Below are positions 43,971-62,131 of a stretch of 64,000 nt of DNA, one piece after another. The DNA is from an uncultured bacterium (GTDB taxonomy: Bacteria > Patescibacteriota > Minisyncoccia > Phycocordibacterales > GWA1-40-21). Position 1 is the stretch's first letter, and each line of letters begins with the position of its first letter. The notes beneath the pieces were generated by a model, which ran no database searches, was not told the DNA's origin, and saw nothing but the letters and a program-made list of their open reading frames with translations. A program made the position numbers and the translations under genes. The stretch lies in contig CAWJAN010000001.1 in the NCBI GenBank assembly GCA_963840885.1, forward strand, positions 181,356 to 245,355, read 5' to 3'.

Positions 43971-44046
43971 GCCGTTGTAGCTCAGTCGGTAGAGCACGTC
44001 ATTGGTAATGACGAGGTCACCGGTTCGATCCCGGTCAACGGCTCCA
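43971..44046 (+). tRNA. tRNA-Thr(GGT)
   Basis: Acceptor GCCGTTG/CAACGGC. Anticodon arm CGTCA-TTGGTAA-TGACG gives anticodon GGT. T-loop TTCGATC. CCA is encoded. Confidence 0.85.
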
Positions 44047-44137
44047 TTTTAAAAAATGTTAGTTTTTAAAATGATGCCTATAAGTAGCTGTTCTGGCAGG
44101 TATCACCGCGAAGCAGATTAACAATTTGGGAAATAAT

Positions 44138-44210
44138 GCCGAAGTAGCTCAGTTGGTAGAGCACATCTTTCGTAAAGATGGGGTCGCCGGTTCGATCCCG
44201 GCCTTCGGCT
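44138..44210 (+). tRNA. tRNA-Thr(CGT)
   Basis: Acceptor GCCGAAG/CTTCGGC. Anticodon arm CATCT-TTCGTAA-AGATG gives anticodon CGT. T-loop TTCGATC. Confidence 0.85.
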
Positions 44211-44251
44211 CAAATTATCTTTTGGACTTGTTTATGCTATTATAACCGCAT

Positions 44252-44794
44252 ATGTTTTGGAGCAGAATGGGTTTCAGGACTTTCATACTTTATTTGGTAA
44301 AAGGGATACTGCCCGGAATTTTTCTGATGATACTGTCTGTTTTTCTTCTTTTGATAAAAAGCTATCTCGTAAGCGGAGCTAATTCAGAAATAATACAGCT
44401 GGGAAATTCGTATCAGATAATAATAACCGTTGCAGGCATACTTATGATTGCAGCGTTTCCCATCATAGCTCTCGGAATAATAATAAATATGTGGCGCTAT
44501 TGGAGAATCCAATACAAGCTGGAAGATGATGTGCTCAGATTCAACCGAGGAATAATAAGCGTTAAAGAACTCTCCATACCGTATACAAAAATAGAAGACG
44601 TGGACCTTGATCAGAGCGTTCTCGGGAGAATTTTCGGAGTCGCAAGATTATCCATAATAACATCAGGACGCGAAGAAAAAGGAGCCACTAGCGAAACGGA
44701 AATGATTTTCAATATGATAGACATAGGTAAAGCCAGGGATCTCCAAAAAGAACTGATATCAAGAGGAAGTGTGCAAAAAGTCAAAGAAATTTAA
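44252..44794 (+). CDS. Bacterial PH-domain (bPH_2/DUF304, YdbS/YdbT-like) membrane protein
   Basis: Two N-terminal TM helices flank a short loop. Then RFNRGIISVKELSIPYTKIEDVDLDQSVLGRIFGVARLSIITSG, the characteristic bPH_2 signature. Confidence 0.7.
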   Translation: MFWSRMGFRTFILYLVKGILPGIFLMILSVFLLLIKSYLVSGANSEIIQLGNSYQIIITVAGILMIAAFPIIALGIIINMWRYWRIQYKLEDDVLRFNRGIISVKELSIPYTKIEDVDLDQSVLGRIFGVARLSIITSGREEKGATSETEMIFNMIDIGKARDLQKELISRGSVQKVKEI

Positions 44795-44818
44795 AACCGC
44801 CCAAAAGGCGGTTTTTTC
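44794..44818 (+). terminator. Rho-independent terminator
   Basis: aaaaccgcc-caaaa-ggcggtttttt immediately after the stop codon. Confidence 0.65.
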
Positions 44819-44821
44819 ATG

Positions 44822-44895
44822 CGCGGGTGACCGGACTCGAACCGGCGACCTCTCCCGTGACAGGGGAGCGTTCTAACCAACTGAACTACACCCGC
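44822..44895 (-). tRNA. tRNA-Asp(GTC)
   Basis: The reverse complement gives acceptor GCGGGTG/CACCCGC, anticodon arm CTCCC-CTGTCAC-GGGAG (anticodon GTC), and T-loop TTCGAGT. Confidence 0.85.
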
Positions 44896-44936
44896 AAACG
44901 TTTAAAAAGGATATCAGAAATTTTTATTTCTTCAAT

Positions 44937-45080
44937 TCCTTTTGTGTCGACGGGTGGATTCGAGTCTTACAGACTCAGTACCCCGATTGGATTTTTCCGT
45001 TCATTTTCATTCCGGAAAAATTCTCAATCGGGCTTCGAATCCACCACGAAACTGCCATCCGGCAGTTTCTCGTCTGCACA
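44937..45080 (-). repeat. tRNA-3'-end-mimicking palindromic element, copy 2 (next to tRNA-Met/CAT)
   Basis: On the minus strand: tgtgcagacga (imperfect complement of the tRNA-Met 3' end) - hairpin gaaactgccggatggcagtttc - gtggtggattcgaa (complement of the tRNA-Met T-arm) - GCCCGATTGAG - 33-nt spacer - CCAATCGGGGTACTGAGTCTGTAAGACTCGAA - tccacccgtcgacacaaaa (copy of the tRNA-Met 3' end). Same order and core as 31111-31250. Confidence 0.5.
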
Positions 45081-45111
45081 AATATAAAACAATAAATTGT
45101 CTTATATTTTG

Positions 45112-45185
45112 TGTCGACGGGTGGATTCGAACCACCGACCTTAGCTTTATGAGTGCTACGCTCTAACCACCTGAGCTACGCCGAC
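45112..45185 (-). tRNA. tRNA with CAT anticodon (Met elongator or Ile2-lysidine type)
   Basis: The reverse complement gives acceptor GTCGGCG/CGTCGAC (one G-U), D-arm GCTCAGGTGGTTAGAGC, anticodon loop CTCATAA (CAT), and T-arm GGTGG-TTCGAAT-CCACC. Confidence 0.78.
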
Positions 45186-45284
45186 ATTAAAAATTTCACC
45201 GAGTTAATATAGCATTTTTTACCGTGTTTTCAAATTAAATGCCGATTTCGTTTTGCCGAAATCGGCATTTAATTTTTCTATTGT

Positions 45285-45353
45285 TGCGGGGGCCCGAGTT
45301 GCACGGACATCTCAAGGTTATGAGCCTCGCGAATTACTGTTACTCTACCCCGC
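45285..45353 (-). tRNA. Atypical tRNA-like gene with CAT anticodon (short D-arm, T-loop TGCAACT); possible divergent tRNA or pseudogene
   Basis: The reverse complement gives acceptor GCGGGGT/CCCCCGC (6 bp plus one mismatch), anticodon arm CGAGG-CTCATAA-CCTTG (CAT), and T-arm GTCCG-TGCAACT-CGGGC lacking the usual TTC. Only 17 nt lie between the acceptor and anticodon stems. Confidence 0.4.
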
Positions 45354-45426
45354 TATTTAGGCTTAATATGCTACAGAAAAAATACCAAAAAGTCAATTTT
45401 TTGTATTAATAAACGGAGAAAAAATA

Positions 45427-46382: not shown

Positions 46383-47831
46383 TTATTTTTCATCCAAGAA
46401 ACTTTTGGAAACAGCGAAAAGCGTGCCCTCTCCGAGATGATCCGCTATTAACTGAATTCCGATAGGCATTTTCTTTCCGCCAATATCCTTGAATCCGGCC
46501 GGAACGGATATGGCAGGGATTCCGGCAAGGTTTATCGGCACGGTAAAAATATCTTCAAGATACATGGCGAGTGGATCGTTGACTTTCTCCCCGATTTTGA
46601 AAGCTACCGATGGAGCAGTCGGAGTAGCTATCACATCGACTTTTTCAAAAGCTTTTTTATAATCTTCTTTTATGAGTTCGCGCACAAGATTGGCTTTATT
46701 GTAATATGCATCGTAATAGCCGGAAGAAAGAACATAAGTTCCGAGAATTATCCTTCTTTTGACTTCCCTGCCTAGGCCATTTTGCCTGGAGAGGAAATAA
46801 TCTTCGATTCCTGTTTTGCCGGAAACCCTTTCGCCGTATCTCATGCCGTCAAAGCGCGCCATGTTCGATGAAACTTCTGCAGGAACTATTACGTAATAAA
46901 CCGCCAGGGAATATTTAAGATTCGGCAATTTTATATCGATGATTTCATGACCAAGTTTTTTTAATTTTTCCAGAGACGCTTCAAAAGCTTCCAGAACATC
47001 TTTATCTATTCCGCCGACATTCAAAAAATCTCTCGGAACTCCTATTTTAAATTTCTTGCTTGATGAGATTTCTGGAGATTTTTTATTCGGAAGCGAAGTG
47101 CTGTCCATCTTATCGTGCCCCTTTATTGCTTCATACAGAATTTCCGCATCCTCTATGTTTTTTCCAAAAGTTCCTATTTGATCGAGAGATGAGCCCATGG
47201 CCATGAGGCCGTATCTTGAGACAGCGCCATATGTAGGCTTGAGCCCGACTATTCCGCAAAAGCTTGCCGGCTGCCTTATGGAGCCGCCGGTATCGGAGCC
47301 TAAAGCTACAAGAGCTTCGTCCGCCGCAACGGCGGCGGCAGAACCTCCGCTCGAGCCGCCTGGAACTCTTTCATTGTCTATAGGATTTTTTGTAACTCCG
47401 TATGCTGAATTTTCGGTTGAACCGCCCATTGCGAATTCATCCATATTTGTCCTGCCGATGATCACCGCTCCGTGCTCGCGCTGCAATTTTTCTATGACTG
47501 TTGCATCATATGTGGCTTTGTAGTTTTCAAGAATTTTGGAGGCGGAGCTGGCTATTTTTCCTTTTACTAAAATATTATCTTTTACGGCAATAGGAATTCC
47601 CATCAGAAGCGGAAAATCTTTTTTGACTTTGTTCGCTTCCGATATCGCTTTGTCAGCAAAGCTAGCTTGCTCAAGCACATTGTCATAAACTTCAAGGTAC
47701 GCATGAATATCTTTGTCCTTTTTCTTTATTTCATCCAGATACGCTTTGGCGAGATCGCTTGCCGAATACTCTCCTTTCTTGAAGGCTTCATGGGCTTTTT
47801 TTATAGTAAGATTTTTTAAATCAATAGGCAT
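46383..47831 (-). CDS. gatA: Glutamyl-tRNA(Gln) amidotransferase subunit A
   Basis: Amidase signature GGSSGGSAAAVAA, the catalytic Ser-cisSer-Lys context, and the operon position after gatC. Confidence 0.93.
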   Translation of the reverse strand: MPIDLKNLTIKKAHEAFKKGEYSASDLAKAYLDEIKKKDKDIHAYLEVYDNVLEQASFADKAISEANKVKKDFPLLMGIPIAVKDNILVKGKIASSASKILENYKATYDATVIEKLQREHGAVIIGRTNMDEFAMGGSTENSAYGVTKNPIDNERVPGGSSGGSAAAVAADEALVALGSDTGGSIRQPASFCGIVGLKPTYGAVSRYGLMAMGSSLDQIGTFGKNIEDAEILYEAIKGHDKMDSTSLPNKKSPEISSSKKFKIGVPRDFLNVGGIDKDVLEAFEASLEKLKKLGHEIIDIKLPNLKYSLAVYYVIVPAEVSSNMARFDGMRYGERVSGKTGIEDYFLSRQNGLGREVKRRIILGTYVLSSGYYDAYYNKANLVRELIKEDYKKAFEKVDVIATPTAPSVAFKIGEKVNDPLAMYLEDIFTVPINLAGIPAISVPAGFKDIGGKKMPIGIQLIADHLGEGTLFAVSKSFLDEK

Positions 47832-48115
47832 CAGAGTATTTTTTTGACTTTAAGATAATTATCCTGTGATTCCGGCATGTCTGCGACTATATCTTTTGTA
47901 TTTTTTCCGCTCTCAGCAGGATTTTCATCAAGCCTTGTGACATTTCTGTGTTCGCCGGCCTTTTTCTCTTCGCTCATCGTCGAAGCTACATCTTTTATCT
48001 GGGAAACATAGCCTAAAATAGAGCCTATGTCTTTAAGAAGGCTTTTCTTCTCATTTTCGGAGAGCTCGATTCTGGCAAGCTTAGCCAAGTGTTCTATATC
48101 TTTTATTTCCAACAT
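47831..48115 (-). CDS. gatC: Glutamyl-tRNA(Gln) amidotransferase subunit C
   Basis: About 94 aa. N-terminus MLEIKDIEHLAKLARIELSENEKKSLLKDIGSILGYV is typical GatC. Its stop/start overlaps gatA. Confidence 0.85.
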   Translation of the reverse strand: MLEIKDIEHLAKLARIELSENEKKSLLKDIGSILGYVSQIKDVASTMSEEKKAGEHRNVTRLDENPAESGKNTKDIVADMPESQDNYLKVKKIL

Positions 48116-48133
48116 AAAATCAATACTAGCACT

Positions 48134-50182
<2,049 letters not shown>

Positions 50183-50982: not shown

Positions 50983-51972
50983 ATGAAAAAAGCTTTGCTT
51001 TGTTTTGCCGTATTCGTTGCCGTCTTTTCGGCAGCGATTGTCATGACCTCGTGCGGAGGAGGTAATCCTGCCGGACCGGGAGGCGGAGGAAGCAGCCAGA
51101 CGCCGGGAATAACCTGCATCAATAATCAGGGAACGGTGGTGCCATGCGCTCCATCTTTCACGGCAACGCCGACGCCTACCGGAACATGGTATACGCCGAC
51201 GCCGACGGACACGATGACTCCCTGCTTTATTTCAACGGGGACTCCTTGCGGACCGGGTATACCGACTATACCGCCGACTGGTACCTTTACGATGACACCT
51301 ACTATCACGTCTACGGTTACTAAAACGCCGACGGCAACTCCGACTTCGACTCCCTCGAGCCACAATGTATATTTTGTGATTTCGGGAACTTTTGTCGGAG
51401 GAGGAACGATCAATACGTCGAATTCCACAGCAGGTTCATCTGAAGAAGTGGATGAGACGGTGTCGCCGATTTCACGAACATCATCGACGTATGCGTTTAA
51501 TTCCGGAGATTTGATTTTTGCGTCAATCGGAAACATACCGCCTGGACCATATTACAATATGTCTAATTCGACTGTTGAAATATGGGTTGACGGATCGCTT
51601 TGGCGCTCTGCTTCATTGCCTTCAGGTGTGGCTACAGGAAATAATGTATTATTAAATGAGACTGTTCCTGTGGATACATCGAGTACGCCTGCCGGAACTC
51701 CGGTAAACGTATCATATACGGTTACATCGAATAATCCTGGGGATTTTTCCGTAACATATAATCTGCCGGACGGAGGACAAGTATCGGTTTCTCAAAATGA
51801 ATCCTTTACTTCGGGAACTCTTCAGTTTTATCCGGGAGAAGTGGCGAAAATCGAAGGGACGAGCTTGAGCGGAAGGACGGATAATTTTACGTCTACGATT
51901 CTGGTGAGTAGTTCATCTGTTGCTCAGATAACCGCTGCAAGCGATGCGGTTACAGAGTACACGATGCCTTGA
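50983..51972 (+). CDS. Predicted lipoprotein, Thr/Pro-rich (paralogue of 55009-55764)
   Basis: Lipobox VMTSCGG (signal peptidase II-type), then NPAGPGGGG and a T/P-rich linker and a beta-rich C-terminal domain. It shares the ...C..(x)NPAGPG... N-terminal architecture with the 55009 product. Confidence 0.55.
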   Translation: MKKALLCFAVFVAVFSAAIVMTSCGGGNPAGPGGGGSSQTPGITCINNQGTVVPCAPSFTATPTPTGTWYTPTPTDTMTPCFISTGTPCGPGIPTIPPTGTFTMTPTITSTVTKTPTATPTSTPSSHNVYFVISGTFVGGGTINTSNSTAGSSEEVDETVSPISRTSSTYAFNSGDLIFASIGNIPPGPYYNMSNSTVEIWVDGSLWRSASLPSGVATGNNVLLNETVPVDTSSTPAGTPVNVSYTVTSNNPGDFSVTYNLPDGGQVSVSQNESFTSGTLQFYPGEVAKIEGTSLSGRTDNFTSTILVSSSSVAQITAASDAVTEYTMP

Positions 51973-51984
51973 TCCAAAGTCATG

Positions 51985-52020
51985 CGGGCCCGGTTCATAT
52001 TATGAACCGGGCTTTTTTAT
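51985..52020. terminator. Bidirectional rho-independent terminator
   Basis: gcgggcccggttcata-tta-tgaaccgggcttttttatt. Confidence 0.65.
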
Positions 52021-53347: not shown

Positions 53348-53383
53348 AAAAAATCGGATAGTATATAGAATATACTATCCGAT
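53348..53383 (-). terminator. Intrinsic terminator/attenuator directly after the precursor-peptide gene
   Basis: Perfect 14-bp inverted repeat atcggatagtatat-aga-atatactatccgat. On the minus strand it is followed by TTTTT, which runs into the ATG of the downstream TraB-like gene. Confidence 0.55.
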
Positions 53384-53403
53384 TTGGCAAGAATTCTCAA
53401 ACC

Positions 53404-53577
53404 TCACTGATCAGTGTTGTCGAGATATTCATCACCATACTGGATATCCGGATAAGTATAATCATCATACTCATCCGAACTCATCCGAGTACTTGCCGTT
53501 GGTAATGGCAACCGGTCAACACGCGAAAAAGCTCCGCGTAATGCCTTAATGCCTTTTTCTTCTGCAAGAACTGACAT
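53404..53577 (-). CDS. Candidate RiPP precursor peptide (57 aa) with Tyr-x-Asp-rich C-terminus
   Basis: Own translation: MSVLAEEKGIKALRGAFSRVDRLPLPTASTRMSSDEYDDYTYPDIQYGDEYLDNTDQ. It is preceded by an AAGGAGG RBS 7 nt upstream of the ATG and sits 44 nt downstream of the rSAM/SPASM gene on the same strand. It is not in the supplied ORF track. Confidence 0.55.
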   Translation of the reverse strand: MSVLAEEKGIKALRGAFSRVDRLPLPTASTRMSSDEYDDYTYPDIQYGDEYLDNTDQ

Positions 53578-53621
53578 GCTTTCCTCCTTAATGAAATCAA
53601 AGCAAGTTTGTTGCTATATAT

Positions 53622-54707: not shown

Positions 54708-55008
54708 TTTAGTTCACCACCTTTCATTATTTAAAAGAACTTAGGAAAAAACTCTTTGGATGTGCCTAAATATTCAAGCTTACCGAAAGAGTTATTTTCT
54801 GATTCAATTTTAACAATCAATTTAATCTTGTCAAACCGTGGTTCAAAAACCCTTTATTTATGGCCCTAAAATTGGCTTATCCACAGGGATTTGACTTTTT
54901 ATTATTTAATAGTATAATATTGACAAGGCTAAAGAGTTGTTCTTTAGTTAAGTTGTACCTTCAAAACTTAATACTACGACTACAAATAAATTTCCGAGGA
55001 GGAAAATT

Positions 55009-55764
55009 ATGAAGAGAATTATGCTTTTGCTGCTTCTGATTCTCCCGGTTGTCTTTCTTTCCGCCTCGTGCGCTCAGAAAGATAATCCGGCTGGACCAGG
55101 TCCGAGTAATACGCCGACGGCAACGCCGGTGGTAAGTGCAACGCCAAGCGTTTCAGCCACTGCTACGCCCACCACTACGGTGACGTACAGTGTCCGAGTT
55201 CAGATGAGCGGTGATTTCACCGCTGCTGGTGGAATTGATGTGAATTCCTTAGATGGGATACATCATTTTTCCACTTCGCCGTTTTCCTACGATGCGACCT
55301 TTACAAGGGTCTATTCAGCGGCAACGACGCTCCATCTGTCTTGTGATACCACTGATGGGACATATACCATGAACAATGCCGTGATAACGGTATCGTTCAA
55401 TGGAGTAGAGTGGGCACCCACTTTACCCTACGTCCTGACAAATGGTAATTACCTCGGTTTAGAAGGTCCTATCCCAGCAAGCTTGACGGTAGTCAATACC
55501 GGCTCGCCTGTCGATGTCTATTACACGGATACTGGGTCTTCAGGAACTTCTTGGTGGTTAGCAAACGGCTGGACCATGGGTGTCGTTACCGCTGGTCCTG
55601 TTACGTCTCCGACGTATCAGTTCTATAGCGGAGATATGGCACGTCTGGTGACGTGCACCGGCGGTGGCGGATGCAATGATACCGCAACCATTTATGCCGG
55701 AGGCTCCCCAGTAACAACCAACACCTACCTTTACGGAAATGATATCAGTTATACCATTCCGTAA
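55009..55764 (+). CDS. Predicted lipoprotein, Thr/Pro-rich (paralogue of 50983-51972)
   Basis: Lipobox LSASCAQ, then NPAGPGPS and a T/P/A-rich linker and a beta-rich C-terminal domain. Confidence 0.55.
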   Translation: MKRIMLLLLLILPVVFLSASCAQKDNPAGPGPSNTPTATPVVSATPSVSATATPTTTVTYSVRVQMSGDFTAAGGIDVNSLDGIHHFSTSPFSYDATFTRVYSAATTLHLSCDTTDGTYTMNNAVITVSFNGVEWAPTLPYVLTNGNYLGLEGPIPASLTVVNTGSPVDVYYTDTGSSGTSWWLANGWTMGVVTAGPVTSPTYQFYSGDMARLVTCTGGGGCNDTATIYAGGSPVTTNTYLYGNDISYTIP

Positions 55765-55834: not shown

Positions 55835-56467
55835 TTAATTCACAATGTAAGGATTGTTCGAGTAGTTGTATATATAATCCTCGAGGTTTATGTAGTTTTG
55901 TGATGGATTGATTCCCCATTCTACTCTTATACGCACCAGGGCTTCCCCTGGAGTTGTGGTAGTAGAAATATTCAGATATCGGTTAAAACCTGATGGTATT
56001 CCTTGTGATAAATTATAATTTACAAAATTTCCTTGCGGATCATTTGTTATTCTTAATGTATGGGCAATCTGAGTTTTATTGATGGCATTAGAAAGATTTA
56101 ACTGAGTTGTATCTATATTGCAAGATTTTTTTCTTGTCTGAATATTTACCGTATCTAAACTACATGCACTCTCGTTTCCAACACAAAAACAAGAATAGCC
56201 GTCACCGCTATCAGCAAACGGCCAGAGCCAAAACGTATTAGTCGTAGCATTCGAAAGCGCCACTTCATCGCGGATATTTTTTACCGCTTCCATGGCATCC
56301 TGCGCCATGTATGCGGCAATCATCTGGTCTGTGGACTGCGTGGCCGACTGAGTTCCCCTCTGCGCCAAGCTCATAGGCCCGGCGATGGCGACCATAAGAA
56401 TGGAAATCGCCACAAGCGCTTCTACAAGCGTGAATCCTTTTATTTTTTTGCTGAATGTTTTTTTCAT
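55835..56467 (-). CDS. Type IV pilin-like protein (minor pilin/pseudopilin)
   Basis: Prepilin leader and N-methylation site MKKTFSKKIKG|FTLVEALVAISIL (G/FTLxE with Glu+5). I chose the internal start. The ORF-track extension to 56539 overlaps the upstream pilin gene. Confidence 0.75.
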   Translation of the reverse strand: MKKTFSKKIKGFTLVEALVAISILMVAIAGPMSLAQRGTQSATQSTDQMIAAYMAQDAMEAVKNIRDEVALSNATTNTFWLWPFADSGDGYSCFCVGNESACSLDTVNIQTRKKSCNIDTTQLNLSNAINKTQIAHTLRITNDPQGNFVNYNLSQGIPSGFNRYLNISTTTTPGEALVRIRVEWGINPSQNYINLEDYIYNYSNNPYIVN

Positions 56468-56492
56468 AATAAAATTTATTAAATGCTGGGGT

Positions 56493-57131
56493 TTATCTCG
56501 ATCTCTGAGAAATCGTCGTCTGAAGGGCAAAGGTGACATTTCCGATTTTGGACTCGACGGAACCCTGAAGCGTTATCAAGACTCTCGGCTGTGTGCCGGC
56601 ATCAATGGAAGGATCAGAATTATAAACATAAAACTTCATGCTGGTTATGTTCACCGTCGATGTCGGAGCGGTCAGGCTCTGCCATGCTCCTGTCTGAGCG
56701 CAATTGAAATTGCTTTTCGTGGCATCGCACATCTGTATATTGCCGTCGCCCGCTGAAAGCATCGAGGATGGAACGAATTTGTAATATATAACATCTCCGG
56801 GAACCAGATTGCCGAGCGCATCCAAAGACGGAGTCGCCGTGTATACGATGCCTGTTCCGCCACTTGTGCAATCGGTATTTTGAGTGAAAGAATTGCTGTC
56901 CGCGGAACATCCATAATGCGTGCCTGTCCTCATATCCCTTGAAATGCTGTCTAATGCGAAGGAAACATTGTCCACGACAGTCTTTATAGCTTCATTTTTT
57001 TTATTGGTATTTATAACCGTAAACAAAGCACCTACGGAAATGACCATGACAGACATGAAAACAGCGATGGCGACAAGCATCTCTACAAGAGTAAAACCTT
57101 TATTCTTTTTTATGAAACTATCTTTGAACAT
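56493..57131 (-). CDS. Type IV pilin-like protein (minor pilin/pseudopilin)
   Basis: MFKDSFIKKNKG|FTLVEMLVAIAVF is a class III signal peptide with Glu+5. Confidence 0.75.
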   Translation of the reverse strand: MFKDSFIKKNKGFTLVEMLVAIAVFMSVMVISVGALFTVINTNKKNEAIKTVVDNVSFALDSISRDMRTGTHYGCSADSNSFTQNTDCTSGGTGIVYTATPSLDALGNLVPGDVIYYKFVPSSMLSAGDGNIQMCDATKSNFNCAQTGAWQSLTAPTSTVNITSMKFYVYNSDPSIDAGTQPRVLITLQGSVESKIGNVTFALQTTISQRSR

Positions 57132-57774
57132 AAATTTGTCCGAGTCCCGTTACCACAATGCTTGATGTCGCACCATCAGCGGAAGAAACAGTAATTTTTG
57201 CATAATTTTGGGCTTTTGTCGTGTTGCCGCCGGCATCCGTATATATAAGGGCGTTCGGAGAAGGCCTTTTGAAAATTATATATAAATCGTTTGCCGGCCC
57301 GAGAATATTGTTCTTGCAATCCGTTTCATTATCCCCTACGCATATCTGTGATATGAAAAAACCGTTTTTTACATTGTATTTTTGGATGCATTGCAAATCG
57401 TTTATCGTGCATTGGAACGAGGTGTTGTTATTTGAGATATCAAAATACGGCCAAGCGGTTATCGTATCGGGAACGGAAAAAACCATGAAGCTGTCATTGC
57501 CAAGATTGGACGGGCTGAAATATACTCCATACGAAGGGAAAGATGATGTGTGTATGGATTCCTGCACTCCAGATCCGTATACTTGTGTCTGCCTGATGGT
57601 CAAAGACATATCATATACGAGATTATTTAGAAGTATGGAATTATTGAATCCGCCTTGCGTAAAAAGCACAACCGTAGTGAGTAAAACGAAAATGACTATG
57701 GTTACCATGAGCTCTATGAGTGTAAATCCCTTTTTCAATCCGGCTCTTTTTTTATTTTTTAGAAAATGTTTCAT
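57118..57774 (-). CDS. Type IV pilin-like protein (minor pilin/pseudopilin)
   Basis: MKHFLKNKKRAGLKKG|FTLIELMVTIVIF is a class III signal peptide with Glu+5. Confidence 0.75.
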   Translation of the reverse strand: MKHFLKNKKRAGLKKGFTLIELMVTIVIFVLLTTVVLFTQGGFNNSILLNNLVYDMSLTIRQTQVYGSGVQESIHTSSFPSYGVYFSPSNLGNDSFMVFSVPDTITAWPYFDISNNNTSFQCTINDLQCIQKYNVKNGFFISQICVGDNETDCKNNILGPANDLYIIFKRPSPNALIYTDAGGNTTKAQNYAKITVSSADGATSSIVVTGLGQIYVQR

Positions 57775-57784
57775 ACAAAAATTT

Positions 57785-58573
57785 TTAAAAACCTATGAGG
57801 CTTCCGAGATTCCATCCTGTGATTATCTGGAGCAAGACCCCGAGAGCTATGAACGGAGCAAAAGGTATCTCGCTCTTAATCGTGATATGATGGCGCTTCA
57901 GAATTTTAAGCTTCTCAAACGCAATCAGGATAAGGCTCCATATGGCACCTATCCAGAAAGCGGAGATTATAGCAAAAATTCCGCCGGAAAATCCCAGCAT
58001 CCATCCGACTCCGAGAGCAAGCTTTGCGTCGCCGAAGCCCATCCATCTGCCTTCCGACACGAGCCATAATGCCCCGAAAAAAGCGAATAGGATTATTCCT
58101 CCAAGAAAATCCATGCCGGCCTGGCCGGAAAAAATATTCAGGAATCCGTAGCTGAAGAATATTATAAGGGCGGCAATGGCATTGAAAGGATAAACGAATC
58201 CGTCAGGAATTATCTTGTGTCCCAAATCGTATGCGGTTATGACTATGAGTAATGATGCTGCCAAAAGATAAAGTATGAGTATCCAAGAAAATCCTATCTG
58301 CCAGAAAAGCGCCGCGTATGAAAGGCCGGTAAAAAACTCAATCCAGAAATATTGGGCGGATATCTTGCTATTGCAGTTCAGGCATCTTCCTTTCAAAAAA
58401 ATAAAGCTCCACAGAGGCACAAGCTCATACCAAAAAAGGTGCTTGCCGCAGCTCAGGCATTTTGACCTGCCGCTCATGAAAGACATGTTCGTGTTGTAGC
58501 GGAAAACGACTACATTTAAGAAGCTTCCTATTATGGTGCCGAATATGAAAAAAATTATAATGTTGAACAGCAT
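57785..58573 (-). CDS. pilD: Prepilin peptidase (A24 family; leader peptidase/N-methyltransferase)
   Basis: N-terminal Zn-binding CxxC...CxxC (CLSCGKHL...CLNCNSKI). Eight TM helices. Conserved Asp-containing segments (AYDLGHKIIPD ... GFGDAKL). Confidence 0.88.
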   Translation of the reverse strand: MLFNIIIFFIFGTIIGSFLNVVVFRYNTNMSFMSGRSKCLSCGKHLFWYELVPLWSFIFLKGRCLNCNSKISAQYFWIEFFTGLSYAALFWQIGFSWILILYLLAASLLIVITAYDLGHKIIPDGFVYPFNAIAALIIFFSYGFLNIFSGQAGMDFLGGIILFAFFGALWLVSEGRWMGFGDAKLALGVGWMLGFSGGIFAIISAFWIGAIWSLILIAFEKLKILKRHHITIKSEIPFAPFIALGVLLQIITGWNLGSLIGF

Positions 58574-58580
58574 TTTTATT

Positions 58581-59102
58581 TTACAAAGGCATTACATCGT
58601 AAATCTTCGGATTGGAAGACGCGTCGACTCTCTGGCTTTCATCGGCTCCGGAGCACTCCAGAAAATTCGTTCCTCCGTCATCAGTTGAAGTTATGCCTGT
58701 GGAATCCAGGCCTTTTTTCTGCAAAAGAATCTGGTTGTTTGTTTCGAGCGTAGTCCAGAGCTGATAAAAAGTGCAATATGTGTTAAAAGACGATGAGCTG
58801 TCTTTTGCCACAAGCGGAAAATATCCGTACGGACTTTGGGTGGACGGATCGGCAGGAACGGACGGCAAAAATCCAGCGGTAACCAAATCTTGCAAAGCCG
58901 GAGGATACTGGTGATTCTTATTGTAATACTCTTCAAGGGAAAGCTTGATGAGGCTTATGTCGGATATTCTGGTGCTATCCCTTCCCTGCGCCTTCGAAGC
59001 GTCAAAAGCGGAATAGGTAATGGTAGTGAGTATGCCTATGATTGCAACTACGACCAGAATCTCTATCAAAGTGAAGCCTTTTTGTTTTTTAAAACGCAAC
59101 AT
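58581..59102 (-). CDS. Type IV pilin-like protein
   Basis: MLRFKKQKG|FTLIEILVVVAIIGIL is a class III signal peptide with Glu+5. Confidence 0.75.
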   Translation of the reverse strand: MLRFKKQKGFTLIEILVVVAIIGILTTITYSAFDASKAQGRDSTRISDISLIKLSLEEYYNKNHQYPPALQDLVTAGFLPSVPADPSTQSPYGYFPLVAKDSSSSFNTYCTFYQLWTTLETNNQILLQKKGLDSTGITSTDDGGTNFLECSGADESQRVDASSNPKIYDVMPL

Positions 59103-59137
59103 TATTCTTTGATTATACCAATCATTGCCATAAAAAA

Positions 59138-59162
59138 CAAAAACCCCTTGCGGGGCTTTTGT
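59138..59162 (-). terminator. Rho-independent terminator after the major-pilin gene
   Basis: ccccttgcgggg hairpin with a T-run on the minus strand (plus strand aaaaacaaaaaccccttgcggggctttt). Confidence 0.5.
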
Positions 59163-59184
59163 TAATAAAATCCGTTAAGAGATT

Positions 59185-59598
59185 CTATTGGCAATCAGTC
59201 GATGAGGCAACATTGGCTGTTGTGCCTTTTGAAGCACCTGAGCTTCCAGCACACCAGTATGTGTCGCTTCCTTCGGCAACCTTGAGAGGCGCTGAAGCTG
59301 ACCAATCATTTGCGGTAGCAATACACATGCCTGCACCACCTCCTGTTGAAGTGGCATTTGCAAACATATTTGCAAATGTCGTATCACCGCACAAGCCTGT
59401 ATAGCTGTTTGGTGTTTGGCTGCTGTAATACAATTCTCCTTGGGCTCTCATAGAGGCCAATTCTGATTTGACTGCAGCATTTGCACCCTTTGCTCTTGCG
59501 GAGTTAAGCGATGCCAAGACCACCGATGAAAGAATACCGATGATGGCGATAACCACCAAAAGTTCGATCAATGTAAAACCTTTTTGATATTTTCTCAT
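59185..59598 (-). CDS. pilA: Type IV major pilin candidate (PilA-like)
   Basis: MRKYQKG|FTLIELLVVIAIIGILSSVVLASL. 137 aa. A C-terminal Cys pair (CAGSSGASKGTTANVASSTDC) looks like a D-region disulfide. It has its own downstream terminator. Confidence 0.72.
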   Translation of the reverse strand: MRKYQKGFTLIELLVVIAIIGILSSVVLASLNSARAKGANAAVKSELASMRAQGELYYSSQTPNSYTGLCGDTTFANMFANATSTGGGAGMCIATANDWSASAPLKVAEGSDTYWCAGSSGASKGTTANVASSTDCQ

Positions 59599-59837
59599 AA
59601 AGTGTTTAATTCCTATCGATAAAAATTAACTTTGATAAACGCTTTTTCAAAACCAATCCGCTTGCTCAAGGCGGATAAAATTTGAAAAACTGATTTTTCG
59701 CGAAAAATCAGAAAGCTTGCCTGTAATTATAGCGTATATTTTTTCAAAAATGAAAAGCTGTCATGTGGATAAGAGAAAATGCGGCGCCGTAAGGCGCCGC
59801 ATTTTTACTTTCTACTCAGAACTTTATTAACTTAATC

Positions 59838-61046
59838 TTATGCTCCTGCCGATATGGAATAAATAGGAACGAGAACGGCAGCCATGAGGAAAGCCACACC
59901 AAGACCTAAGATCACTATCATTGAAGGTTCGATAAGGCCGACTATGGAATCTATGGAGTTGGTGACTTCCCTGTTATAAAAACTTGCGAGAGTCTTGAGG
60001 ATATTGCCGAGCTGTCCTGTTTCTTCGCCTATCTTCACCATCTGCACGAATATTCCCGGAATCTCTTTGTGCTTGCCGAGAGCTTCGGAAACGGAACTTC
60101 CGGATTTAACATCCTCTTCAGTTCTCTGCATGATTGATTTGAAAACGCTGTTTCCTACGATGCTTGAAGTTATGTCGAGAACTCTGACCATAGGTATTCC
60201 GGAGACGATCATAGTATTCATATTATCGGCTATTCTTGCCAGATACAATTTCAGATATAAATCTTTTACCAAAGGGACGCTGATTTTAGCTTCATCATAA
60301 GACATCTTTCCGGCATTGGTTTTCAGATATCTCCAAAGGAAAAAACCGGCGATTACGAGAGCTATCAGAAGTATGATTCCGTAATTGACAAAAAAACTTG
60401 AAATACCGAGAACCACCTGCGTATAAAACGGTATAGCCTGGCCGGATTGGGTAAGAATATCGCTTATCTTAGGTATTACGAAAGTAAGCATAAGAATCAT
60501 GACTACGATAAAAGTGCATACGACAAATGCGGGATAGATAAGTGCTGTTTCCACTTTTGATGTTACTTCGTAAGTCCTGTCGAGATAATCGGCCAGATAC
60601 ATGAATGTCTGGTCGAGCTTTCCCGATTCTTCTCCGGATTTGACCATGTTTATATAGAAATCAGAAAATGCTTCCGGATGCTTTGATAGCGCCGTGGAGA
60701 TGGGGGTTCCTCCTTGAAGATCGTCGGCTACTTCTTTGAGTATTCTTCGCAAAATCGGCTTTTCCGACTGCGCGGCAAGAAGCTGAAAAACTCTTAGAGC
60801 AGAAACCTGGGCTTCAAAAAGGGTGGAAATCTGTCTTGAAAGTATGACTACGTCCTTGTTTGAAACTCTGTCAAAAAAAGTTATGTTCTTTGACAAAAGC
60901 GATCCAGATTCTTCTTCCGGCTTTATAGTGACTATGGACAAGCCTCTTTTCTGCAAAGCGCTTATGGCCAAGTCAATATTCACTGCATCAACCGTCCCTT
61001 CTTTTGAAGCGCCTGTCTGATCCAATGCTTTGTATCTAAAAGTCAT
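59838..61046 (-). CDS. pilC: Type IV pilus assembly platform protein PilC (GspF family)
   Basis: 402 aa with two tandem T2SSF domains and three TM helices. Its position between pilT and the pilin genes supports the call. Confidence 0.88.
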   Translation of the reverse strand: MTFRYKALDQTGASKEGTVDAVNIDLAISALQKRGLSIVTIKPEEESGSLLSKNITFFDRVSNKDVVILSRQISTLFEAQVSALRVFQLLAAQSEKPILRRILKEVADDLQGGTPISTALSKHPEAFSDFYINMVKSGEESGKLDQTFMYLADYLDRTYEVTSKVETALIYPAFVVCTFIVVMILMLTFVIPKISDILTQSGQAIPFYTQVVLGISSFFVNYGIILLIALVIAGFFLWRYLKTNAGKMSYDEAKISVPLVKDLYLKLYLARIADNMNTMIVSGIPMVRVLDITSSIVGNSVFKSIMQRTEEDVKSGSSVSEALGKHKEIPGIFVQMVKIGEETGQLGNILKTLASFYNREVTNSIDSIVGLIEPSMIVILGLGVAFLMAAVLVPIYSISAGA

Positions 61047-61066
61047 ATTTTTATTTTAATCTTAAT

Positions 61067-62131
61067 TTATAGCATTCTCTGCAAAATCTTCGAATCCGTA
61101 GCATAAACATATGCATTCTCAACAGTTATTTCTCCCCTGGCAACAAGTTCCGCCAGGCTTCTGTTCATATCAACCATTCCTTCCTGCGAACTTGTTTCTA
61201 TGACTGAATTTATTTCATGAATCCTGTTTTCCCTGATGAGATTTGATACGGCATTATTATTCATCAAAAGTTCGTATGCAGGAATAAGGCCGCCGGAAAC
61301 TCTTGGAATAAGCCTTTGCGAAAGTATTCCCATCAAGCTTCCGGCCAGCTGGATTCTTATCTGTCCCTGCTGTTCGGCAGGAAAAGAATCTATGATTCTT
61401 GAAATTGTCTGCGCCGCGGAATTCGTATGAAGCGTGGAAAAAACCAAATGCCCGGTTTCCGCAGCGGTCACAGCTGTGCCTATGGTGTCTATCCCTCTCA
61501 TCTCTCCGATCATAGCCACATTTATGTCTTCCCTGAACATGCTCTGCAGGGCTGTAGGGAAATCTTTCGTATCAAGCCTTATTTCTCTCTGATCCACTAT
61601 GGATTTTTTCTGTTCGAAAACATACTCGATGGGATCTTCGATTGTTATTATATGTTCGGTTCTGGATTCATTTATCTCTTCTATCATTGCGGCGAGCGTA
61701 GTGGTTTTTCCATGGCCTATCGGTCCGACGACAAGGAAGAATCCCTGTGGCTTTTCAGTGAAAGATTTGAGTATGTCGGGAAGATTGAGCTCTTTGAAAT
61801 TCCTGATCTTTTTAGGAATGAGTCTCAGCGCTATGCCTATTTTCCCTTGCTGGAAGAAACAATTGCCCCTGAACCTGTTTCCGTTTTCTGCTCCGTAAGA
61901 AAAATCAAATTCTTTTTTATTCAGGAATTCATCAAAATTTTCCTTTCCTATGAGCTCGTTCAGAAGCCCTCTTACTTCATCTGAGCTGAATTCTTCTTTC
62001 TTTACAAGAGGAAGAAGAAGGCCTGTAACCCTTATTATGGGCTTTCTTCCTTCTCCTATGTGCAGGTCCGAAGCTCCTTCTTCTGAAACTATCTTGACCA
62101 GGTCATTTAATTCTTCTTTGTAATTCATCAA
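61067..62131 (-). CDS. pilT: Type IV pilus retraction ATPase PilT
   Basis: Walker A GPIGHGKTTT, Asp and His boxes. 354 aa is PilT-size, and it lacks the PilB N-terminal domains. Confidence 0.88.
   Translation of the reverse strand: MMNYKEELNDLVKIVSEEGASDLHIGEGRKPIIRVTGLLLPLVKKEEFSSDEVRGLLNELIGKENFDEFLNKKEFDFSYGAENGNRFRGNCFFQQGKIGIALRLIPKKIRNFKELNLPDILKSFTEKPQGFFLVVGPIGHGKTTTLAAMIEEINESRTEHIITIEDPIEYVFEQKKSIVDQREIRLDTKDFPTALQSMFREDINVAMIGEMRGIDTIGTAVTAAETGHLVFSTLHTNSAAQTISRIIDSFPAEQQGQIRIQLAGSLMGILSQRLIPRVSGGLIPAYELLMNNNAVSNLIRENRIHEINSVIETSSQEGMVDMNRSLAELVARGEITVENAYVYATDSKILQRML

Follow-up and report, generated by a model that had tools for sequence, protein, structure and literature searches.

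A conserved precursor-peptide gene beside a radical SAM/SPASM enzyme gene in Patescibacteria, probably encoding a triceptide-type peptide

The 64,000-nt window analyzed here (positions 181,356 to 245,355 of contig CAWJAN010000001.1, assembly GCA_963840885.1, from an uncultured bacterium of the Patescibacteriota) contains a 57-codon open reading frame (ORF) at 53404-53577. This ORF is a real, conserved precursor-peptide gene situated between the gene for a radical S-adenosylmethionine (SAM)/SPASM enzyme and that for a putative peptidase. Based on sequence comparison, its product is best read as the leader plus core precursor of a radical-SAM-modified peptide made by the ribosome and tailored after translation (a RiPP), of the triceptide (three-residue cyclophane) type, and a probability of roughly 0.7 was assigned to this reading. 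The mature product would most likely be a peptide with aromatic-to-Asp ring crosslinks.

Translation of the minus strand from 53577 to 53404 yielded exactly MSVLAEEKGIKALRGAFSRVDRLPLPTASTRMSSDEYDDYTYPDIQYGDEYLDNTDQ followed by a stop codon, with an ATG start, and the plus-strand reading of 53404-53577 was riddled with stops. An earlier note on this DNA had listed the coordinates, the 57-aa sequence, the motifs YDD, YPD, YGD, YLD, and YTY, and the absence of Cys, all of which were confirmed by the translation; the strand, which it had left unstated, was found to be minus. The five motifs are all located within the last 21 residues of the precursor, where Y40-T-Y42 joins Y42-P-D44 to give a [Y/F]-x-Y-x-D block. 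No Cys is present in the 57-aa peptide, and its core is also without a conserved Ser. The leader recognition motif (Table 1) is directly followed by V-D-R-L-P-L-P, which carries the subfamily element [LF]-P-x-P. In residue shuffles, the chance of at least four Y-x-D motifs was 7e-4 for the whole peptide, 4e-3 for the 38 residues past the leader motif, and 7e-3 for the last 22 residues. For the window peptide alone these odds are suggestive, not conclusive, and conservation is the decisive evidence.

Exact-sequence look-ups of the window peptide and of the radical SAM protein matched no record. A homolog search with the single window peptide sequence returned only the peptide itself; its homologs surfaced via synteny and then by profile. 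The window radical SAM protein has hundreds of relatives, nearly all from metagenome-assembled genomes (MAGs) of the candidate phyla radiation (CPR; Patescibacteria). The DNA downstream of the radical SAM gene was read in 80 genome loci (L001-L080), seven metagenome loci, and seven further contigs, and small frames running back into the end of the radical SAM gene were caught by three-frame translation. An ORF of approximately 45-75 aa starts approximately 10-70 nt past the homologous radical SAM gene in all Patescibacteria loci except L043, down to a radical SAM identity of approximately 33%, and is also found at the more distant L046 and L049 and in every close relative fetched. Overall, essentially all of the approximately 45 Patescibacteria loci read have it. 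A metagenome scan with the single radical SAM protein produced the seven metagenome loci, six of which have the small ORF; the seventh ends inside the radical SAM gene. Among the further contigs, the small ORF was found in all six for which the DNA was read and as a 55-aa called gene on the seventh; it is an uncalled frame in L092 and a called gene in the other six of the seven. That a conserved small ORF should lie beside homologous radical SAM genes in other MAGs, as the earlier note had anticipated, was thus borne out in dozens of MAGs. The hosts of the cassette include Harrisonbacteria, Yanofskybacteria, Nomurabacteria, Yonathbacteria, Zambryskibacteria, Wolfebacteria, and WWE3, and since the flanking genes differ between loci, the cassette is itself the conserved unit.

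The small ORFs share a leader motif, A-[LIV]-x-[G/A..]-[A/V/T]-[F/L/I]-x-R, which was present in 28/28 curated peptides. Alignment A2 shows no variation at A12 or R19, and in alignment A4 the conservation of A12, G15, and R19 is 90% or higher; mean identity among the small ORFs across dozens of genomes is approximately 24%. Searching with a profile of the 28 curated peptides brought up the window peptide itself and 48 others at E ≤ 1 (49 proteins), and a second profile, run against 1.84 billion representatives, retrieved 62 representatives or clusters at E ≤ 1e-3; the profile searches together contributed about 100 additional peptides. All but three of these matches (49 plus 62) are 44-77 aa long and none has a functional name or domain; likewise, no model in NCBIfam or Pfam matches the peptide family. 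Of 13 close relatives, 12 have a Shine-Dalgarno-like GGAG or AGGAGG ahead of the peptide start (L081, with no clear start, is the exception), and a hairpin of 12-16 bp follows the peptide stop in 12 of 13 close loci, with a T-run in most. The stem sequences differ, so that the structure of this hairpin is conserved and not its sequence. The small ORF is a real gene because it is conserved in position across relatives together with the Shine-Dalgarno sequence and the post-peptide hairpin; a spurious ORF was ruled out by this conservation. One protein of the representative library, P0210 (249 aa), consists of the C-terminal half of this clade's radical SAM enzyme (…YPCDRLSGN…) joined to a precursor-like tail (…ALAGCLNRI…WPNWENWENN…); the two parts may be fused in nature, or the join may be an artefact of a frameshift or of assembly.

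The core motif follows a rule that holds across the family. In the window subfamily (13 peptides, radical SAM identity 56-74% where measured), Asp occupies the +2 position of Tyr in 61 of 68 cases and the intervening X2 is any of 11 different residues. The possibility, raised in the earlier note, that the Y-x-D positions vary freely is not what was found: they are constrained, with Asp at +2 of Tyr in 90% of cases in this close subfamily, while X2 varies freely. The register YDD[YF]xYxDxx[YH]xD is common to the window peptide and those of L002, L005, L009, L010, L082, L084, and L089. Over 68 peptides, 282 aromatic (Y/W/F/H)-x-[DN] motifs were counted, compared with 82.6±7.5 in shuffles, although these peptides are related and the z-score therefore overstates independence. 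At +2 from an aromatic residue, D accounted for 58% and N for 18%, so that D+N reached 76% against a background of 22%, and no other offset behaved alike. Asp/Asn at +2 is kept in the Trp-type subfamily, with cores such as GWNNWPDWDNGPDFPNWED and GWDDQWLNWDDLGGDDPGWGD, in the His-type subfamily, with the core GWDDGDHSDGHDDSSEHDD, and in the Phe-type subfamily; at least six subfamilies with distinct core designs obey the aromatic-x-Asp/Asn rule. Each core repeats a single unit, in approximately 3 to 8 copies across the family. A Cys/Ser-Pro pair conserved in many cores was considered as a target of the sulfatase-maturase type and was dropped, since Ile-Gln stands there in the window peptide.

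The adjacent 361-aa enzyme has Radical_SAM and SPASM domains and resembles the anaerobic sulfatase-maturating enzymes (anSME). Its radical SAM cluster is coordinated by C13/C17/C20 and its auxiliary clusters by C244/C250/C265/C319 and C306/C309/C315/C336; one CX3CX2C protein was present in the window. In an alignment with anSMEcpe, all radical SAM and both sets of auxiliary-cluster cysteines were matched, and three Fe-S clusters are kept. The alignment spans residues 7-346 of 361 and so leaves no RiPP recognition element (RRE) or extra domain in the maturase. The top curated match was TIGR03942 (anaerobic sulfatase maturase) at 267.5 bits, under its cut-off of 349.45, followed by DynA, PapB, DarW, DarE, AmcB, and GrrM/OscB, all far under their cut-offs. 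Among PDB sequences, anSMEcpe was closest (E = 5e-48, 29% identity), and the triceptide synthase ChlB matched at E = 3e-12. An AlphaFold model built on 28 homologs (predicted local distance difference test score, pLDDT, 87.7) gave template modeling (TM) scores of 0.85 with anSMEcpe, 0.81 with ChlB, which was crystallized with its leader, and 0.77 with CteB.

The catalytic Asp277 of anSMEcpe, which follows an auxiliary-cluster Cys, corresponds to Glu266 of the window maturase, in the motif C265-E266-R267. The residue after this acidic position correlates with the type of peptide next door. C-[ED]-R was found in 27/27 enzymes paired with Asp/Asn cores and in seven more that were checked, C-E-Y in 8/9 enzymes paired with W-x-K peptides (…NWIKC), and C-D-S in two Patescibacteria enzymes paired with basic W-D-K peptides; anSMEcpe and peptide-less anSME-like relatives have C-D-F or C-D-H. 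Arg at this position was seen in no enzymes other than those paired with acidic cores. In other triceptide synthases, X3 specificity has been shown to be tuned by one active-site residue (Phan and Morinaka, PMC11499958), and R267 may be a candidate determinant of the position-3 residue here.

The W-x-K peptides belong to nine loci (L015, L016, L017, L021, L025, L029, L031, L033, and L041) whose radical SAM enzymes are relatives at 33-38% identity and whose MAGs are labeled Bacilli, Rickettsiales, Alphaproteobacteria, and, in two cases, Saccharimonas/Saccharimonadales. Their peptides, which lie past the radical SAM gene, are 26-36 aa long and end in …W(R/K)G…SNW(I/M)KC, with a W-x-K unit and a C-terminal Cys. 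These loci appear to form a sister family in which position 3 is of the Lys type. The basic peptides of the two Patescibacteria loci (L062, 5106-5267; L077, 5102-5257) carry W-D-K units (…KPWDKARDKGPWDKGHWANRK) and follow a radical SAM gene of 28-29% identity.

A mechanism can be proposed by analogy with the general triceptide mechanism (PMC12257519), triceptides being defined by an aromatic-to-Cβ link on Ω1-X2-X3 made by radical SAM/SPASM enzymes (PMC11499958). The RRE-less enzyme would bind the leader element A-L-x-G-A-F-x-R together with [LF]-P-x-P. The 5'-deoxyadenosyl radical would then take the Cβ hydrogen from the position-3 Asp of each aromatic-x-Asp unit, whose side chain (Asp/Asn) R267, beside the auxiliary-cluster cysteine, might hold, and the resulting carbon radical would add onto the ring of the position-1 Tyr. 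Oxidation and deprotonation would re-aromatize the ring; candidates for these roles are the auxiliary clusters and E266, the counterpart in position of Asp277, the base of anSME. Each unit would thus acquire a Tyr-C3 to Asp-Cβ three-residue ring and become 2 Da lighter (-2 Da), and the window peptide would be expected to form up to four such rings. The TIKI-like hydrolase would cut off the leader, and the methyltransferase might tailor the product.

The gene directly past the peptide encodes a 251-aa protein, homologs of which occupy the same position in L001, L002, and L004-L014 (28-48% identity). In L088-L091, in L094, and on the contig of P0013, the peptide is followed by an uncharacterized gene of 225-268 aa, and a homologous frame with GxxH and GxGH motifs is present in L093 and, in part, in L092. 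G25, H28, E60, E84, R214, G237, and H240 are invariant in 13 homologs of the 251-aa protein. Pfam TraB_PrgY_gumN matched 5/13 homologs weakly, with a best E of 8.6e-6, and the window protein scored 20 bits against a cut-off of 26.8. Inspection by eye revealed no signal peptide or membrane segment in this protein. In the Trp-type branch, the peptide-adjacent slot is occupied in 11 of 13 loci by a convergent gene for an HExxH protein of approximately 300 aa instead of the TIKI-like gene. The presence of two unrelated hydrolase-like genes in one slot fits a leader-peptidase role, and the 251-aa protein is tentatively proposed as the leader peptidase, at slightly under even odds. To our knowledge, no role of the TIKI superfamily in RiPP maturation has been described, and a TIKI-type partner was not mentioned in the RiPP leader-protease review that was examined.

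The HExxH protein was found in L026-L028, L032, L034, L035, L037-L039, L042, and L044, approximately 220-290 nt past the radical SAM stop on the opposite strand; it has the motif WHEVIH, weak SprT-like Pfam matches, and no NCBIfam match. It could be a zincin peptidase or an α-ketoglutarate-dependent HExxH hydroxylase of the ChlH/YhhC kind. As a counterpoint to the leader-peptidase role, HExxH proteins of triceptide clusters may instead act as α-ketoglutarate-dependent β-hydroxylases (PMC12636437). M16-family peptidase genes were observed 1-2.5 kb downstream of the cassette in L089 (6570-7104), L090 (3959-4493), and L093 (4160-5101), which may be a coincidence or a second maturation protease. 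The methyltransferase gene is absent from the cassette in all 80 genome loci, and its candidacy as a core component was rejected on this ground; the order radical SAM, 55-aa, 251-aa, and 182-aa methyltransferase gene does recur on one close contig, the Joint Genome Institute contig carrying P0013. It is possibly an accessory tailoring enzyme, at most.

The features of the locus are collected in Table 1. The transcription unit appears to run from the promoter through the radical SAM/SPASM maturase, the precursor, a hairpin attenuator, and the TIKI/TraB-like hydrolase to the methyltransferase. The promoter-like site agrees with the consensus at 11/12 positions, which is a consensus match only and no proof of function. 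The post-peptide hairpin has a folding energy of -22.5 kcal/mol (z = -5.3; 0/200 shuffles fold equally well) and is probably an intrinsic terminator or attenuator; as such it would increase precursor transcript relative to that of the downstream genes.

Table 1. Features of the precursor-peptide cassette, in window coordinates.
Feature	Coordinates	Strand	Description or basis
Promoter-like site TTGACA-16 nt-TAAAAT	54807..54834	minus	TG before the -10 hexamer; upstream of the radical SAM gene; consensus match
Radical SAM/SPASM peptide maturase, 361 aa	53622..54707	minus	Directly upstream of the peptide, same strand
Shine-Dalgarno AGGAGG	53583..53588	minus	5 nt before the peptide ATG
Precursor peptide gene, 57 aa + stop	53404..53577	minus	ORF translation and homologs
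Leader recognition motif A12-L-R-G-A-F-S-R19	53521..53544	minus	Family consensus A-[LIV]-x-G-A-[FLI]-x-R
Core, Y37-D-D39, Y42-P-D44, Y47-G-D49, Y51-L-D53	53419..53469	minus	Aromatic-x-Asp units
16-bp perfect hairpin + U-run	53351..53385	minus	Between the peptide stop and the next gene
TIKI/TraB/PrgY-like hydrolase, 251 aa	52592..53347	minus	Candidate leader peptidase
Class I SAM-dependent methyltransferase, 181 aa	52028..52573	minus	Methyltransf_25/11/12; 18 nt past the TIKI-like gene

A 13-bp GC-rich palindromic hairpin at 51986-52014, between the convergent gene at 50983-51972 (+) and the methyltransferase gene, is probably a bidirectional terminator closing the operon. Housekeeping genes flank the cassette: LigA and GatCA lie to one side, a type IV pilus cluster to the other. 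GatA/GatC (46383-48115) and the NAD-dependent DNA ligase (48134-50170) lie downstream in a chromosomal region of 41% G+C, and five tRNA genes (Thr, Thr, Asp, Met, Met) are clustered at 43971-45354. The pilus cluster (55835-62131, minus strand) adjoins the cassette and includes a prepilin peptidase (57785-58573), a PilC-like T2SSF protein (59838-61046), a T2SSE ATPase (61067-62131), and several pilin-like genes with N-terminal methylation motifs. Divergent from the radical SAM promoter, 55009-55764 (+) encodes a 251-aa protein without a match in any family; it combines a lipoprotein-like signal (…LSASC) with a linker rich in Thr, Pro, Ala, and Ser.

Several points weigh against the triceptide assignment, in addition to the relatedness of the peptides in the motif statistics mentioned above. 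The maturase did not reach the curated cut-off of any NCBIfam family, and this applies to all the cyclophane-synthase families. For the models of enzymes that form three-residue cyclophanes (3-CyFEs), scores and cut-offs were 65.4/450 for XyeB (TIGR04496), 119.5/310 for GrrM/OscB (TIGR04261), 94.5/370 for FxsB (TIGR04269), 109.5/445 for YhhB (NF041707), and 130.9/425 for AmcB (NF041718); the dynobactin/darobactin maturase models NF041298, NF038005, and NF041300 likewise fell short (205/450, 132/650, and 138/650). The nearest relative in both sequence and structure is anSME, an oxidizing rather than a crosslinking enzyme. No transporter or exporter was found in the cassette. The peptidase assignment is drawn from weak Pfam matches and motif conservation, with a single-sequence model of pLDDT 40.6, and the likeness to YxdA and to YxdB (WP_226048651.1), the one enzyme known to make Tyr-Asp links, is in the Y-x-D motif type only. 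Finally, what was shown is that the gene is real, that the cassette is conserved, the motif rule, the fold of the enzyme with its Fe-S ligands, and the correlation at R267; the modification or crosslink itself, its regiochemistry, the roles of E266, R267, and the peptidase, and the biological function are what we infer from these comparisons.

The closeness to anSME raises the question of whether the enzyme is an ordinary anaerobic sulfatase maturase that converts Cys/Ser to formylglycine on another protein, the small ORF being unrelated or non-coding. Its best family match (TIGR03942) and its best PDB match (anSMEcpe) both point in that direction, but the TIGR03942 score is below the cut-off, no C/S-x-P-x-R motif occurs in any long ORF of the 64-kb window (which is part of the genome), and the window core offers neither a Cys nor a conserved Ser. 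Moreover, in relatives that lack a peptide, C-D-F or C-D-H stands in place of the C-[ED]-R of this clade, and the in-frame conservation of the small ORF, with its Shine-Dalgarno sequence, extends across dozens of genomes at the low mean identity given above. This explanation is contradicted by the conservation data and was considered extremely improbable. A different question is whether the same precursor and enzyme carry out other radical chemistry, namely a C-O-C ether, a fused darobactin-like bicycle, or a modification of Asp only (epimerization or Cβ oxidation). The site of the bicycle variant would be Y40-T-Y42-P-D44, which has an Ω1-X-Ω3-X-X5 layout like that of darobactin WNWSK. DynA, DarW, and DarE are among the top curated matches, the Ω1-X2-Ω3 motif is a daropeptide hallmark (PMC12912966), and the [YF]-x-Y-x-D block recurs in the seven loci that share the window register; aminomalonate can also arise, in a minor shunt, when a cyclophane-forming radical SAM enzyme overoxidizes peptidyl Ser (PMC12186529). 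The block is, however, missing in the close relatives L001, L081, L088, and L093, which have Y-x-D units only, and in all Trp- and His-type subfamilies, and the joint conservation of the aromatic residue and of Asp/Asn at +2 points to a reaction that needs both. The earlier note had proposed Tyr-centered C-C or C-O crosslinking by the adjacent radical SAM enzyme. The C-C alternative is supported by the Y-x-D conservation and by the precedent of YxdB and OscB; the phenol ether is less likely as the common chemistry because the sister subfamilies use Trp, Phe, and His, which have no phenol oxygen, at the same position. Taken jointly, these other chemistries, the bicycle included, appear unlikely.

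The triceptide assignment also overlaps with a proposal that concerns function and not the crosslinking step, in which the product would give rise to a small cofactor or metal ligand derived from the peptide, in the manner of pyrroloquinoline quinone (PQQ) or mycofactocin, with the TIKI-like hydrolase cutting out the crosslinked Y-x-D units. The cassette is common among Patescibacteria with reduced genomes, has housekeeping genes but no transporter or immunity gene around it, and encodes cores that repeat one unit in approximately 3 to 8 copies; the M16 peptidases close to the cassette in L089, L090, and L093 would also suit such processing. Against this, no PqqB/C/D-like or other cofactor-finishing genes are found in the cassette, and spacers and cores of varying length are a typical trait of triceptide precursors with several rings, so that a cofactor source was regarded as very unlikely. 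Little probability, though somewhat more than to the cofactor source, was given to a more ambitious picture, a Patescibacteria-wide RiPP branch in which an anSME-derived enzyme would make Tyr-Asp rings plus a fused darobactin-like bicycle on [Y/F]-x-Y-x-D, the product being matured by a TIKI/TraB protease and serving as an episymbiont signaling or host-interaction molecule.

Organisms with genomes of approximately 1 Mb are usually credited with little natural-product capacity. In a literature search for radical SAM enzymes, RiPPs, or cyclophanes in Patescibacteria/CPR, no paper on such RiPPs was found, and a search with core strings (NWPDW, YDDYQD, and others) returned nothing relevant. Taken singly, the radical SAM gene would be annotated as a sulfatase maturase or just as a "radical SAM protein"; public records leave the peptide without a name or do not call it, and list the 251-aa gene as "hypothetical". 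Viewing them as one cassette provides a testable function for three genes that recur across many CPR lineages. The natural core series, with Tyr, Trp, Phe, or His at position 1 and Asp or Asn at position 3, together with enzymes that differ at R267, should be useful for the study and engineering of cyclophane synthases, and TIKI/TraB-type hydrolases are flagged as possible RiPP leader peptidases.

Compared with known systems, the cassette is most like the triceptides. It shares with them the repeated aromatic-X-X3 units with X3 = Asp/Asn, the adjacent radical SAM/SPASM gene, the use of all four aromatic residues across subfamilies, and an RRE-less enzyme with two auxiliary clusters and a ChlB-like fold. 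A putative peptidase is encoded here, and characterized triceptides are reported to be proteolytically matured before the first ring (PMC12912966). YxdB makes a Tyr-C3 to Asp-Cβ link, OscB makes Trp-C7 to Asn/Asp-Cβ links, and HaaB and YhhB use His (reviewed in PMC11002830, which covers Nguyen 2020 and Sugiyama 2022); since the Tyr-Asp link of YxdB is already documented, the chemistry proposed here is not new. The cassette differs from characterized triceptides in that its enzyme is under every curated 3-CyFE cut-off and nearer to anSME and DynA, in that its hosts are almost entirely Patescibacteria, and in that the partner is TIKI/TraB-like or, in the Trp-type branch, an HExxH protein.

The enzyme resembles anSMEcpe (PDB 4K36-4K39) in its three [4Fe-4S] sites, its size, the lack of an RRE, and the acidic residue after the auxiliary Cys (C276-D277 there, C265-E266 here). 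It differs in having C-E-R where anSMEcpe has C-D-F, and in having a dedicated acidic, Tyr-rich, Cys-free peptide next door, with no sulfatase seen in the window. In the comparison with the TIKI/TraB/PrgY/GumN/erythromycin-esterase superfamily, the 251-aa protein matches the 2His/2Glu plus conserved basic-residue signature described for TIKI enzymes (PMC6254334) through H28, E60, E84, R214, and H240, and differs in its weak Pfam match and in having no PDB sequence match, whether searched as a single sequence or as a profile. DarE, DarW, and DynA introduce three-residue aromatic crosslinks into short cores, and three-residue crosslinks are predicted here; DynA is the second-best curated match (205 bits), and the window core contains one daropeptide-like Ω-x-Ω-x-X block; 3-CyFEs and daropeptide maturases are reported to have a common origin (PMC12912966). 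Darobactin and dynobactin, however, are BamA-binding products of Photorhabdus with short Trp/Lys cores, whereas the cores described here are long, acidic, multi-repeat, and patescibacterial. What looks new is the uncurated, CPR-wide precursor family and an enzyme clade with a TIKI-like partner, as judged with the approximately 3,900 predicted triceptide pathways outside the comparison, and the system is best filed as an unannotated family working like known triceptide RiPPs, not as new chemistry.

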